Shown: positions 35,478-38,466 of the stretch, one piece after another
Numbering within the stretch: position 1 is the stretch's first letter
How the letters are laid out: every line of letters starts with the position of its first letter
From: a virus
Length of the DNA: 64,000 nt
UHGV virus genome: UHGV-0209617
Reading direction: 5' to 3' (one strand)
Notes under the pieces: model-generated
Seen by the model: the letters and a program-made list of their open reading frames with translations, nothing else
Told to the model about the DNA's origin: nothing
Database searches by the model: none
Made by a program: the position numbers and the translations under genes

Positions 35478-35653
35478 TGAAATGACCTCCTTTGTTTTTG
35501 GTATGTACATATATCACTCTAAAGAGGACAAATAGCAAGTCATTTCTTTGGAATATGTAATAAATATTTTTACAAAAAATATCTACAAAACCCTTGCTAT
35601 TACTGGCGTTTAGAGTGATTAATGTAGTACCGAAATTAAAGGAGGCAAACAAA

Positions 35654-36355
35654 ATGATTTACAAGCTGAAAATGGAAAACGGCACCCGCAAGGAGCTGGC
35701 AAAGGAAATCGGAAAGATTATCGCCCAGGAAGCAAAGTACATGGGAGTTCCAAGCTGCGGCTACAGGATCGGGGACATGGTCTTGGATAAGGATTGGAAC
35801 CTTGAGGTTCCGGATGGCATGGATGCGCGGGAGCTTCTGATGGCACTAACAGACCTTGGCTTCTACGAGCCGAAGGAAGAAATACCCGCAAAGACAGAAG
35901 AAGAGCCAACACAGGCGGCCACAGCCCCTCTTACGGGTCTTGTGGTAAAGATTCCGCTGAGTGCCATGACCACGGAAGCAATCATAAACCTTACGGATTT
36001 GCTTATCGCAAAGGACAAGCTGCTCTGCCACGCATTTGGCATAGAAAGCCTTGACCTTATCCGAAACGAGGAGAACATAGAGTTCAGATGGTTTGAAGGG
36101 ATGGATATCGGAGCGGAGGAAGCCAATGCTTACATGACCTTTATTTCCAAGCTCTGCGATTTGGCAAGAACCCTCAAGAGGGTAAACGGTAAGGAAAAAG
36201 AAGTGCCGAATGAGAAATACGCCTTCAGATGTTTCCTGCTGAGACTTGGCTTTGTCGGCAAGGAATACAAGGAGCAGAGAAAAATCCTTTTAAGTAAGCT
36301 CAGCGGTTCATCCGCATTCAGGGATGGGAGGAAAAAAGATGAAGTATCCGAATAA
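35654..36355 (+). CDS. Hypothetical protein sharing a ~40 aa C-terminal module with the amidoligase
   Basis: ATG 35654 with GGAGG upstream; C-terminus NEKYAFRCFLLRLGFVGKEYKEQRKILLSKLSGSSAFR aligns with amidoligase C-terminus NEKYTFRCWLLRLGLNGEEFKTCRTHLLKHLEGNSAWR. Confidence 0.5.
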   Translation: MIYKLKMENGTRKELAKEIGKIIAQEAKYMGVPSCGYRIGDMVLDKDWNLEVPDGMDARELLMALTDLGFYEPKEEIPAKTEEEPTQAATAPLTGLVVKIPLSAMTTEAIINLTDLLIAKDKLLCHAFGIESLDLIRNEENIEFRWFEGMDIGAEEANAYMTFISKLCDLARTLKRVNGKEKEVPNEKYAFRCFLLRLGFVGKEYKEQRKILLSKLSGSSAFRDGRKKDEVSE

Positions 36356-36557
36356 GGAATTGCTGGAAAGTCTCAGAAAGGAATACCCAAATGGGTGCAG
36401 GGTGGAGCTGGTGCAGATGGATGATGCACAGGCACCGCCGCCCGGCACGAAGGGAACGGTAAAGCACGTGGATGATATCGGCACCATCCATATCAGCTGG
36501 GATACCGGCTCAGGACTTGGGGCGGTTTACGGTGAAGATATCATCAGAAAGGTCTAA
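36339..36557 (+). CDS. Small phage protein (DUF4314-like)
   Basis: 72 aa from ATG 36339 with GGGAGG upstream; pattern GTKGTVKHVDDIGTIHISWDTGSGL. Confidence 0.4.
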   Translation: MKYPNKELLESLRKEYPNGCRVELVQMDDAQAPPPGTKGTVKHVDDIGTIHISWDTGSGLGAVYGEDIIRKV

Positions 36558-36632
36558 TGGAAAGGCGGGGATAAAACCCCGCCAGCCCAGTAAAATAGTG
36601 TAAAAATAATCCATAAATCTCGCATAAATGAC

Positions 36633-36661
36633 TTGATAATAATACAGATGTACGGTAATAT
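36633..36661 (+). promoter_or_regulatory. Consensus-like sigma-A promoter, copy 1 of a duplicated ~48 bp element
   Basis: -35 TTGATA, 17 nt spacer, -10 TAATAT, then ACACACAAC(A/G)AAAGGG; near-identical copy at 38201-38229. Confidence 0.5.
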
Positions 36662-36710
36662 ACACACAACAAAAGGGAACACCCCACCAAGAGAAAGCGA
36701 GGAAAACAAA

Positions 36711-37598
36711 ATGGATTTAAGAGCACAGACCTTCGGAGTAGAGATTGAGATGACCGGCCTTACAAGAAACAGGGCCGCAAAGGTAATCGCCGCATACTTC
36801 GGAACGGAGGCAACCTACTTCGGAGGCGGATACGATGAGCACCACGCAAAGGACAGCAAGGGCAGAATCTGGAAGGCCATGAGCGATTCAAGCATCAGGG
36901 CAGAAAAGAAGGACGGCTCCTACGCAAGCGACCTTTACAAGACCGAGGTGGTAACCCCAATCCTCAGATACGAGGACATTGAAGACCTACAGGAAATCCT
37001 GAGAAAGCTCAGAAAGGCAGGGGCGATGGTAAACAGCAGCACAGGGATTCACATCCACATCGGAGCGGAGAATTTCACCCCGGCTACCCTTTGCAACCTT
37101 CTGAAGAACATCCGAAGCAAGGAGGACATTCTTTACAGAGCCATTCAGGTCAAGGAAAACCGCGCAAGGTACTGCAGAAAAACAAACCAGAAGCTCATCG
37201 AGATGATTGAGGCACACCGCCCCAAGACAAAGGAGCAGCTTGCAGACCTTTGGTATGCAGAAGCACCATACGGAAGAAACAGGCATTACAACGACAGCAG
37301 ATACCACGGACTTAACCTCCACGCATACTTCACTAAGGGAACGGTCGAGTTCAGGCTTTTCAACAGCACCCTCCACGCAGGCGAATTGAAAGCCTACATA
37401 CAGTTCTGCATGGCGGTTACAGCAAAGGCCATAAACACCAAGAAGGCAAGCGCGAAGCCAAGCATCAGCGACAACGAAAAATACACTTTCAGATGCTGGC
37501 TCCTCCGCCTGGGCCTTAACGGAGAAGAATTCAAGACCTGCAGAACCCACCTTTTGAAGCACCTCGAAGGAAACAGCGCCTGGAGGCACCTTTCCTAA
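36711..37598 (+). CDS. Amidoligase (Amidoligase_2 / glutamine synthetase-like)
   Basis: 295 aa from ATG 36711; motifs FGVEIEMTG, GIHIHIG, VEFRLFNSTLH. Confidence 0.6.
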   Translation: MDLRAQTFGVEIEMTGLTRNRAAKVIAAYFGTEATYFGGGYDEHHAKDSKGRIWKAMSDSSIRAEKKDGSYASDLYKTEVVTPILRYEDIEDLQEILRKLRKAGAMVNSSTGIHIHIGAENFTPATLCNLLKNIRSKEDILYRAIQVKENRARYCRKTNQKLIEMIEAHRPKTKEQLADLWYAEAPYGRNRHYNDSRYHGLNLHAYFTKGTVEFRLFNSTLHAGELKAYIQFCMAVTAKAINTKKASAKPSISDNEKYTFRCWLLRLGLNGEEFKTCRTHLLKHLEGNSAWRHLS

Positions 37599-37610
37599 AA
37601 CAAACCGGCC

Positions 37611-37643
37611 TACCAGCCCCGAAAGGGGCCTTTCGGTGGTAGA
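37611..37643 (+). other. GC-rich hairpin element after amidoligase gene
   Basis: CTACCAGCCCCGAAAGGGGCCTTTCGGTGGTAG; related element at 38467-38506; no U-tract. Confidence 0.35.
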
Positions 37644-37695
37644 AGCACCTAGCTTCTGAATAAACCGATTTGCTTTAGGAAGGGAGTCTTCAACA

Positions 37696-38154
37696 ATGAA
37701 AAGAAAAATCTATCTGGCCTACGGAAGCAACATGAGCCTTTTGCAGATGTACCACCGTTGCCCTGATGCAGAACCGATTGGCAAGGGCATCATCAAGGAT
37801 TACCGCCTGATGTTTAAGGGAAGTAAGAGTGGCAACTATGCGACCATCGAATACGAGGAAGGACGGCAGGTGCCTGTGGTAGCCTGGGCAATCAGTGAAA
37901 GGGATGAAAAATGCCTTGACCGCTATGAAGGATTTCCGAGCTTTTATGTGAAGGACACCATCGCATTTGAATATATCGGTGATCGCCCAGGAAGAAGGAT
38001 GAAGGATGAGGGCATGGTTTATGTGATGCCGCCAGATGAGACTGTTCTGGGGCTTCCAAGTGGTCACTACATGGATGTCCTTCTTGAAGGCTACCATCGC
38101 TTCGGATTTAATTCCAGAATCCTTTGGGAAGCCTACGAATACAGCGATGAGTGA
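37696..38154 (+). CDS. Gamma-glutamyl cyclotransferase-like protein (GGCT/AIG2 fold)
   Basis: N-terminal IYLAYGSNMSLLQM (YGSNM signature); 152 aa; directly follows the amidoligase. Confidence 0.6.
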   Translation: MKRKIYLAYGSNMSLLQMYHRCPDAEPIGKGIIKDYRLMFKGSKSGNYATIEYEEGRQVPVVAWAISERDEKCLDRYEGFPSFYVKDTIAFEYIGDRPGRRMKDEGMVYVMPPDETVLGLPSGHYMDVLLEGYHRFGFNSRILWEAYEYSDE

Positions 38155-38200
38155 GCCGATAAAGTATACAAAAATATCCTCCGAATGTGTGAAGTATAAC

Positions 38201-38229
38201 TTGATATAAGTACGAATGTACGGTAATAT
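38201..38229 (+). promoter_or_regulatory. Consensus-like sigma-A promoter, copy 2 of duplicated element
   Basis: -35 TTGATA, 17 nt spacer, -10 TAATAT; same downstream leader as copy 1. Confidence 0.5.
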
Positions 38230-38277
38230 ACACACAACGAAAGGGGAACAGCCCTAAAGCAAAAGGAGGAAACCACA

Positions 38278-38457
38278 ATGACAAAGAAGGAAAGCGCAAG
38301 GATTTTAGAGATTGCAAAGAAGTACATTTACGCAATCGAAGTGAGAGGGAGCCTTGAGATGATGCAGTCCGACAGCGATGACTTCATCGAAACCTCGGTC
38401 GGCAGCATCGAGGCAGCCCTTGAAGCGGCCTACAGAGCAGGCAAGGCCGCAAGATAA
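38278..38457 (+). CDS. Small hypothetical protein (59 aa, not in ORF track)
   Basis: ATG 38278 preceded by AAAAGGAGGAAA; MTKKESARILEIAKKYIYAIEVRGSLEMMQSDSDDFIETSVGSIEAALEAAYRAGKAAR; driven by promoter copy 2. Confidence 0.4.
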   Translation: MTKKESARILEIAKKYIYAIEVRGSLEMMQSDSDDFIETSVGSIEAALEAAYRAGKAAR

Positions 38458-38466
38458 CAAAGAAAA

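Follow-up and report, generated by a model that had tools for sequence, protein, structure and literature searches.

The window analysed here is the whole 64,000-nucleotide stretch of UHGV virus genome UHGV-0209617, and the subject is a cassette of accessory genes that lies in it between the small (TerS) and large (TerL) terminase genes of a prophage from a gut-type bacterium. The gene order is transcriptional-activator homolog, HNH endonuclease, TerS, ParB-methyltransferase, DUF5049 (on the minus strand), a 233-aa protein, DUF4314, amidoligase, gamma-glutamyl cyclotransferase (GGCT), DUF6900 and TerL (Table 1). The window combines two separable modules: the amidoligase with the GGCT (module A), and the 233-aa protein, which we read as a catalytically dead paralog of the ligase, with DUF4314 (module B).

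The identification of the amidoligase in an earlier note on this DNA holds: the protein matches Pfam Amidoligase_2 (PF12224) at E 4.1e-70, far above threshold (236.9 bits against a cut-off of 22), over residues 5-236 of its 295. Because sequence and profile searches of the PDB matched no solved structure, the protein was examined by fold comparison, in which glutamate-cysteine ligase (GCL) was the top structural neighbour and GCL, YbdK, glutamine synthetase (GS) and PafA were the closest relatives; by this measure the protein has the GS/GCL fold. Residues E11, E13, H114, H116, E213 and R215, which form the motifs ExE, HxH and ExR, lie on predicted strands and are invariant in 32 ligase homologs, and they are candidates for the metal and ATP ligands expected in the GS/GCL superfamily. 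Those structural neighbours that have been characterised are all known to act by activating a carboxylate of the glutamate type.

GGCT-fold enzymes cleave gamma-glutamyl amides, giving 5-oxoproline. The gene directly downstream of the ligase had been proposed to encode a protein of this kind, and it does so by its matches to Pfam GGACT (PF06094; E 7.6e-11, 43.1 bits against 22.8) and to phrog_2520 'gamma-glutamyl cyclotransferase' (E 2.8e-41). Its AYGSNM stretch aligns with AYGSNL of human GGCT, and E78 stands opposite the catalytic Glu98 (2pn7/2i5t). Since the AYGSN motif and E78 match human GGCT, with Y9, G10, S11, N12 and E78 kept in at least 90% of 71 homologs, both the ligase and the cyclotransferase look like working enzymes.

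The 233-aa protein is related to the ligase along its whole length. The earlier note had described a shared C-terminal segment of ~40 aa; the segment is real and is not a low-complexity artefact (BLASTP aligns 83 aa at 42% identity, E 7e-16), but ~40 aa underestimates the relationship, as the hhalign comparison of the two families runs end to end over 225 columns (probability 100%, E 3.6e-42). The protein also matches phrog_2443, the PHROG that holds the ligase too, over its whole length (E 1.6e-49), and it shows no Pfam domain, Amidoligase_2 included, even at E 10. In the profile alignment, ligase residues E11, E13, H114 and H116 are replaced by K4, K6, V and K, and the ligase segments ~57-85 and ~150-205, which carry D59, S61, R197, Y198 and N202, are deleted. 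The ExR motif is retained in the window's own copy (IEFRWF), yet it is unconserved across the family, whose invariant positions include none of catalytic type. The structural model (pLDDT 86.3) has a disordered acidic linker at residues 78-92, and a structure search with it returned weak matches only, the best being Dop, GCL and PafA. We read this protein as a full-length, internally deleted, ligase-derived pseudo-enzyme that should not be classed as an active amidoligase. At least 7,927 clusters at 90% identity, each of ~230 aa, make this a large family, for some members of which 'virulence protein' is used as a name.

The two proteins share a C-terminal module with the pattern NEKYxFRxWLLRLGxxGxEFKxxRxxLLxxLxGxSAW. 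This module lies outside the Pfam domain, has no Pfam match at E 10, and is missing or unrecognisable in distant Amidoligase_2 proteins. Gene conversion between the two copies, or co-evolution of the two proteins as partners, was considered and rejected, as ligase and paralog copies from the same locus are no more alike than copies from different loci (identity 0.568 against 0.572, p 0.82). The absence of any excess likeness within genomes indicates that the module has been kept independently in each paralog.

The association between these genes was examined in 160 related viral loci, 80 found with the ligase as query and 80 with the paralog family; both sets were fetched with patterns derived from the window and therefore sample close clades. 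GGCT lies directly downstream of the ligase in 78 of the 80 ligase loci. The paralog keeps other company, its constant companion being DUF4314, present in 65 of 68 paralog loci; the 13 ligase loci that carry DUF4314 all carry the paralog as well (13/13). The two modules are separable, because a ligase is found in only 34 of 68 paralog loci (GGCT in 31 of 68), the paralog stands upstream of the ligase in 19 of 74 ligase loci, and Streptococcus phage Javan105 carries DUF5049 and both genes of module B (paralog and DUF4314) but lacks ligase and GGCT. DUF5049 itself is found in 26 of the 68 paralog loci. The proposal that the 233-aa protein is a partner sharing a docking module with the ligase thus gives way to that of a whole-length dead paralog that is not obligate, about half of its homologs' loci having no ligase or GGCT. 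The flanks are constant: the ParB-methyltransferase is upstream in 62/80 ligase loci and 65/67 paralog loci, and TerL is downstream in 65/80 ligase loci and present in 65/68 paralog loci. Placement of the cassette between the terminase genes, which the earlier note had pointed out, is true of the window but fails as a general rule, being typical only of the paralog-carrying lineage; among the 46 ligase loci with a detected TerS, that gene is downstream of the ligase in 40 and upstream in 6.

Public phage records already annotate an adjacent 'amidoligase enzyme' and 'gamma-glutamyl cyclotransferase' (e.g., PV036426.1 of Ca. Heliusvirales), and a survey of prophages in Clostridium clostridioforme LM41 lists two phrog_2443 genes and phrog_2520 in one prophage. 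These Ca. Heliusvirales gut phages and LM41 prophages share with the window the order HNH, TerS, methyltransferase, paralog, DUF4314, ligase, GGCT and TerL, but their annotations call both phrog_2443 genes 'amidoligase enzyme', whereas one of the two lacks the catalytic residues here. In a distant phage group, the Arthrobacter cluster AL phages, an AIG2-like protein (gp97) is likewise encoded beside an amidoligase (gp98) (PMC5513430); there, however, the order is reversed, the ligase is ~28% identical and has no C-terminal module, and the pair lies at the genome end beside an RNA helicase and a GTPase. The ligase/GGCT pair of the window is a pared-down example of a type of phage module that is already known, although as a prediction.

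Each unit of the cassette stands behind a promoter-like element. The two copies reported in the earlier note, ahead of the ligase and of DUF6900, form a direct repeat (D1) of 50 nt (86% identical, with an exact 23-nt core), and the core is matched twice against 0.00 matches expected in 100 shuffles; the window in fact holds four copies of an element that is conserved in the lineage. In most relatives an element of ~34 nt, CTGG(A/C)TAT-N9-(C/T)AGAG-N-TAATATGTAC, lies ~45 nt upstream of the ligase start, and it is retained even where the ligase protein is only ~53-59% identical. A position weight matrix (PWM) built from 40 sites in relatives, none of them from the window, finds exactly two sites in the 64 kb (scores 29.6 and 22.7) and nothing else, the maximum in shuffles being -2.2. 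By eye, a sister form, CTTGCTATT-N10-TAGAGTGATATATGTAGTACC, can be recognised ahead of the paralog in nearly all of 74 unique related loci (a strict regular expression flagged 9/74). It occurs twice in the window, back to back and divergent, one copy directed towards the paralog and the other towards DUF5049. We read this conserved element as a putative promoter or regulator site, which the activator homolog encoded upstream of TerS may target; it may also provide homology for the exchange of cassettes.

GC-rich hairpins stand 3' of three of the units, and most hairpins lack T-runs. Promoter-like elements at the 5' side and such hairpins at the 3' side give the units a layout that resembles that of a moron. 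The hairpin ahead of TerL is terminator-like, and therefore expression of TerL would need read-through, antitermination or a start inside the stretch.

Table 1. Genes, promoter-like elements and hairpins of the cassette and its flanks (window coordinates)
Feature	Position	Strand	Evidence and remarks
Transcriptional-activator homolog	31836-32279		Upstream of TerS
TerS	33310-33861		Pfam Terminase_4
ParB_N + N6/N4 DNA methyltransferase (left flank)	33877-35184	+	Pfam N6_N4_Mtase E 1.6e-30, ParB_N E 1.6e-09
DUF5049 small protein	35304-35477	-	Pfam DUF5049 E 8.9e-28
Promoter-like element, copy 1	35506-35539	-	Precedes DUF5049; divergent from copy 2, with which it forms inverted repeat I1 (with 35593-35626); minus-strand sequence CTTGCTATTTGTCCTCTTTAGAGTGATATATGTA fits family consensus
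Promoter-like element, copy 2	35593-35626	+	Precedes dead paralog; sequence CTTGCTATTACTGGCGTTTAGAGTGATTAATGTA
233-aa paralog of the amidoligase, read as catalytically dead (pseudo-amidoligase)	35654-36355	+	NCBI family name 'virulence protein'
DUF4314 small protein	36339-36557	+	Pfam DUF4314 E 2.3e-32
GC-rich hairpin ending paralog/DUF4314 unit	36565-36583	+	Minimum free energy (MFE) -18.4 kcal/mol, z -4.0
Promoter-like element, copy 3	36628-36677 (hexamers 36633-36661)	+	Precedes ligase; direct repeat D1; PWM 22.7
Amidoligase_2 enzyme, GCL/GS-fold carboxylate-amine ligase type	36711-37598	+	Clade-specific C-terminal helical module, ~residues 237-295
Hairpin after ligase gene, weakly supported	37610-37642	+	MFE -19.5 kcal/mol, z -1.4
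GGCT/AIG2-fold gamma-glutamyl cyclotransferase-like enzyme	37696-38154	+	Pfam GGACT and phrog_2520
Promoter-like element, copy 4	38196-38245 (hexamers 38201-38229)	+	Precedes DUF6900; direct repeat D1; PWM 29.6
DUF6900 small protein	38278-38457	+	Pfam DUF6900 E 9.4e-17
Hairpin after DUF6900	38467-38498	+	MFE -19.1 kcal/mol, z -2.3
Terminator-like hairpin + T7 run	38579-38600	+	Terminator scan; ~20 nt before probable TerL start; stem alone not unusually stable
TerL (right flank)	38620-40227 (start alternatively 38560)	+	Probable start codon 38620; Pfam TerL_nuclease E 2.2e-46, TerL_ATPase E 1.5e-21

The reading that we favour, with a probability of about 0.55, is that the region is a hotspot of small self-contained transcription units, each behind one conserved promoter-like element and most ending in a GC hairpin, and that it houses two separable two-gene modules of common ancestry. 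In module A, the ligase would spend ATP on linking an amine to a glutamate-type carboxylate, in the manner of GCL, YbdK, GS and PafA, and the cyclotransferase would then act on the resulting gamma-glutamyl amide to give 5-oxoproline and the free amine. A gamma-glutamyl amide would be the simplest link between the two proteins, because the ligase's structural neighbours activate a glutamate-type carboxylate and GGCT enzymes cleave gamma-glutamyl amides. The pair would thereby place a gamma-glutamyl group on an amine in the cytoplasm, be it a small molecule or a peptide, and later take it off again, most likely in the service of host takeover or counter-defence during the lytic cycle. In module B, the paralog keeps the sheet platform of the ligase and the C-terminal helical module without the catalytic residues, and it may bind a ligand or partner of the ancestral enzyme without modifying it.

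What the analysis shows directly are folds, motifs and their loss, gene linkage and conservation of the element, while the chemistry, the class of substrate, the timing of expression and the role are inferred. The proposed gamma-glutamyl chemistry fits both the folds and the strict linkage of the two genes. Pairings of a ligase with a GGCT-fold enzyme have precedents in the gamma-glutamyl cycle (GCL and GGCT) and in the protect-and-release steps of butirosin biosynthesis (BtrJ and BtrG). As proposed here, these systems form a gamma-glutamyl amide at the expense of ATP and then release 5-oxoproline and the amine by a GGCT-fold enzyme; they differ in being cellular or biosynthetic enzymes with known substrates, and BtrJ belongs to the ATP-grasp class and lacks the GS fold.

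Several points weigh against this reading. A ligase and a cyclotransferase working on the same bond would run a futile cycle unless another step intervened, for which there is no gene here. A GGCT neighbour is lacking for some ligase homologs, as in Faecalibacterium phage FP_Taranis, and the binding role given to the dead paralog is wholly conjectural. Literature searches on Amidoligase_2, phage GGCT, the paralog family, DUF4314, DUF5049 and DUF6900 found no experimental study. The promoter label is weak as well: the hexamers TTGATA-17-TAATAT fit the consensus at only 9 of 12 positions, and a generic scan at that stringency found 15 sites in the region against 15.4 in shuffles, which is no enrichment. 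The two promoters of the earlier note are thus present and part of a significant repeat, but 'near-consensus' overstated them; what is significant is the D1 repeat and its conservation in relatives, not the promoter label.

Modification of the cell wall or of a peptide-like metabolite is the first alternative to be weighed, and we consider it unlikely. The ligase/GGCT pair would here alter peptidoglycan precursors or make a peptide-like metabolite, perhaps as a prophage moron that blocks superinfection. Such a role for phage amidoligase/GGCT modules, namely peptide or peptidoglycan modification, was predicted by Iyer, Abhiman, Burroughs and Aravind (2009), as cited in passages of PMC11945000, PMC11318856 and PMC3890496, and according to the same passages the predicted module of the LUZ24-like Pseudomonas phages and phiEco32 comprises GGCT, Amidoligase_2, a COOH-NH2 ligase (PF14395), ATP-grasp and a class II glutamine amidotransferase. 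The window resembles that module, which is itself a prediction in those passages, in linking a phage Amidoligase_2 protein to a GGCT-fold enzyme. The published module, however, is described there among the early genes and with its additional PF14395 ligase, ATP-grasp and amidotransferase, whereas the window has of it the ligase and GGCT alone, at the packaging end and with a dead paralog and DUF4314. The promoter-gene-hairpin layout is moron-like and speaks for this role, but the ATP-grasp protein, second ligase and amidotransferase are absent here and all the proteins look cytoplasmic. A gamma-D-glutamyl amide does occur in peptidoglycan stem peptides, which is a point in its favour, but GGCT chemistry requires a free alpha-amine on the glutamyl group, and the stem peptide has none.

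Protein tagging stands a slightly smaller chance. On this account the ligase and GGCT would be writer and eraser of a mark, as in PafA/Dop pupylation: the ligase would link a glutamate-ended protein, or free glutamate, to lysine residues of some protein of the host or the virion, the mark would be taken off by GGCT, and the dead paralog would serve as a targeting or adaptor subunit, docking by way of the C-terminal module. PafA and Dop belong to the same fold superfamily and are likewise a paralog pair, but both are active, whereas one paralog is dead here, and no Pup-like tag was found.

A more speculative possibility, to which we attach little weight, is that modules A and B offer the phage two ways of attacking the same factor of the host, which might belong to a defence system. 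The active ligase, with GGCT providing recycling, would covalently gamma-glutamylate that factor or consume an amine that it needs, while the widespread paralog and DUF4314 would neutralise it by binding; the shared C-terminal module would then recognise the target, and the elements would act both as regulatory switch and as homology for swapping.

Modification of phage DNA is the least supported role for the pair, and we regard it as very improbable. Before packaging, a base in the phage DNA would receive an amino-acid-type group from the ligase, beside the neighbouring methyltransferases, and the constant neighbours are indeed DNA-modifying enzymes (the ParB-methyltransferase, in 24 loci a C5 cytosine methylase, and in Javan105 a S-adenosylmethionine (SAM) synthetase); Lee et al. 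(2021) also reported that in phage metagenomes thymidine-hypermodification genes are accompanied by genes whose products have amidoligase Pfam domains (PMC8989533). Against this, no dUMP hydroxymethylase, 5-hmdU kinase (5-HMUDK), aGPT-Pplase or TET/JBP was found among the genes of the prophage's replication module or the hotspot, no known pathway of this kind employs a GGCT enzyme, and by Pfam neither protein has a nucleic-acid-binding domain.

Least credible of all is a reading in line with the docking module of the earlier note, in which the ligase depends on the paralog as its obligate regulatory or docking subunit, for although the two genes are adjacent in the window, share ancestry and both conserve the C-terminal module, each is found without the other in most loci (Javan105 included), the module does not co-vary within genomes, and the constant partner of the paralog is DUF4314.

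The cassette matters as part of one of the commonest unexplained accessory gene sets in gut Firmicute phages. Three results help to focus further work, namely that one of the two 'amidoligases' is by our reading a pseudo-enzyme, that the genes fall into two separable pairs, and that each pair has its own conserved control element. In assays, therefore, the ligase belongs with GGCT, and the paralog belongs with DUF4314 in tests of binding rather than of catalysis. Should gamma-glutamyl-based counter-defence or host takeover prove true, it would represent a new mode of phage-host conflict; otherwise, this would be an ordinary auxiliary gene pair.

The small genes call for some remarks on their starts. 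The likely true start of DUF5049 is the ATG at 35477, after AAAGGAGG. The DUF4314 open reading frame (ORF) is open from 36324, overlaps the 3' end of the paralog, and has GGGAGG before the ATG at 36339. A +1 frameshift at the A-run 36333-36339, fusing the paralog to DUF4314, was considered and rejected in favour of ordinary coupling, because GGGAGG and the ATG at 36339 yield the 72-aa form seen in public data. In one protein collection, a single 90%-identity cluster contains both the 233-aa paralog and the 77-aa DUF4314 protein, whose sequences show no relationship; the probable cause is an artefact of the clustering, or else some fused or mis-called ORF that bridges the two.

A separate observation concerns the elements of relatives. 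Members of the main ligase clade show complementarity between the promoter spacer (e.g., TACCCCTTTCA) and the ribosome-binding region (TGAAAGGGGTA) that lies ~50 nt further downstream, and some changes appear to be compensatory (alignment A3; e.g., L041:6913-7006, L038:6913-7012 and L025:1468-1561). Support for the pairing, which was named by hand, is moderate: the share of paired cells is 79%, slid controls give 37-61%, and none of 500 shuffles reaches the covariation score. RNAalifold predicted no structure in the leader RNA of the relatives, and the pairing is absent from the window's own copies of the element. Where it occurs, this pairing could silence translation on read-through transcripts.

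As to the setting, a host segment of ~31-39% G+C in the window holds a prophage of ~43-49% G+C that extends from roughly 20 kb to 60 kb. The prophage encodes a family A DNA polymerase, an Enc34-type single-stranded DNA-binding protein, a DUF2800 nuclease, a VapE-like primase, VRR-NUC and an SNF2 helicase, together with TerL and a portal protein. Judged from its gene content, this marker set is that of Ca. Heliusvirales-like gut phages, and the nearest records in phage collections are Heliusvirales 'NatCom' phages and Streptococcus Javan prophages. In this Heliusvirales-like prophage, the stretch from the ParB-methyltransferase to TerL forms a hotspot for accessory genes. PADLOC and NCBIfam models matched none of the cassette proteins, a survey of polyvalent proteins makes no mention of the cassette domains, and Rfam found no RNA family in the cassette, either at the gathering threshold over the whole window or at E 1 on 35100-38700.

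A 17-nt inverted repeat (16/17 complementary) brackets the whole accessory region, with one arm just past the methyltransferase stop (35185-35201) and the other just ahead of the TerL terminator (38543-38559). It is unconserved in relatives, and an estimated ~0.15 such pairs would arise by chance in 10 kb; the bracketing is probably due to chance.

Other genes recur in the hotspot of related loci (e.g., L010 and L013). A 141-aa helix-turn-helix and zinc-ribbon protein is encoded between HNH and the methyltransferase in 41 loci, GGCT is followed by a 68-aa zinc-ribbon protein in 28, and 24 have a C5 cytosine methyltransferase. Elsewhere in the prophage, Rfam detected a DUF2800 RNA motif (RF02960) on the plus strand at 19849-20002, at the left prophage end, where the DUF2800 nuclease gene (21145-22389) follows ~1.1 kb downstream; the motif scores 81.8 bits, the gathering score being 60.2. 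Rfam also detected an abiF RNA (RF03085) on the minus strand at 25221-25257, just downstream of the DNA polymerase A gene (43.3 bits against 37). For the gene between HNH and TerS (32836-33237, minus strand) there is a match to phrog_2737, a RelB/DinJ-family antitoxin according to the C. clostridioforme paper. TerL and the portal gene are separated, on the plus strand, by a Phd-like antitoxin (40279-40530; phrog_2194/2268) and a Doc/Fic-like toxin (40527-40901; phrog_577 E 1.6e-36, PADLOC PDC-S23 E 1e-18).

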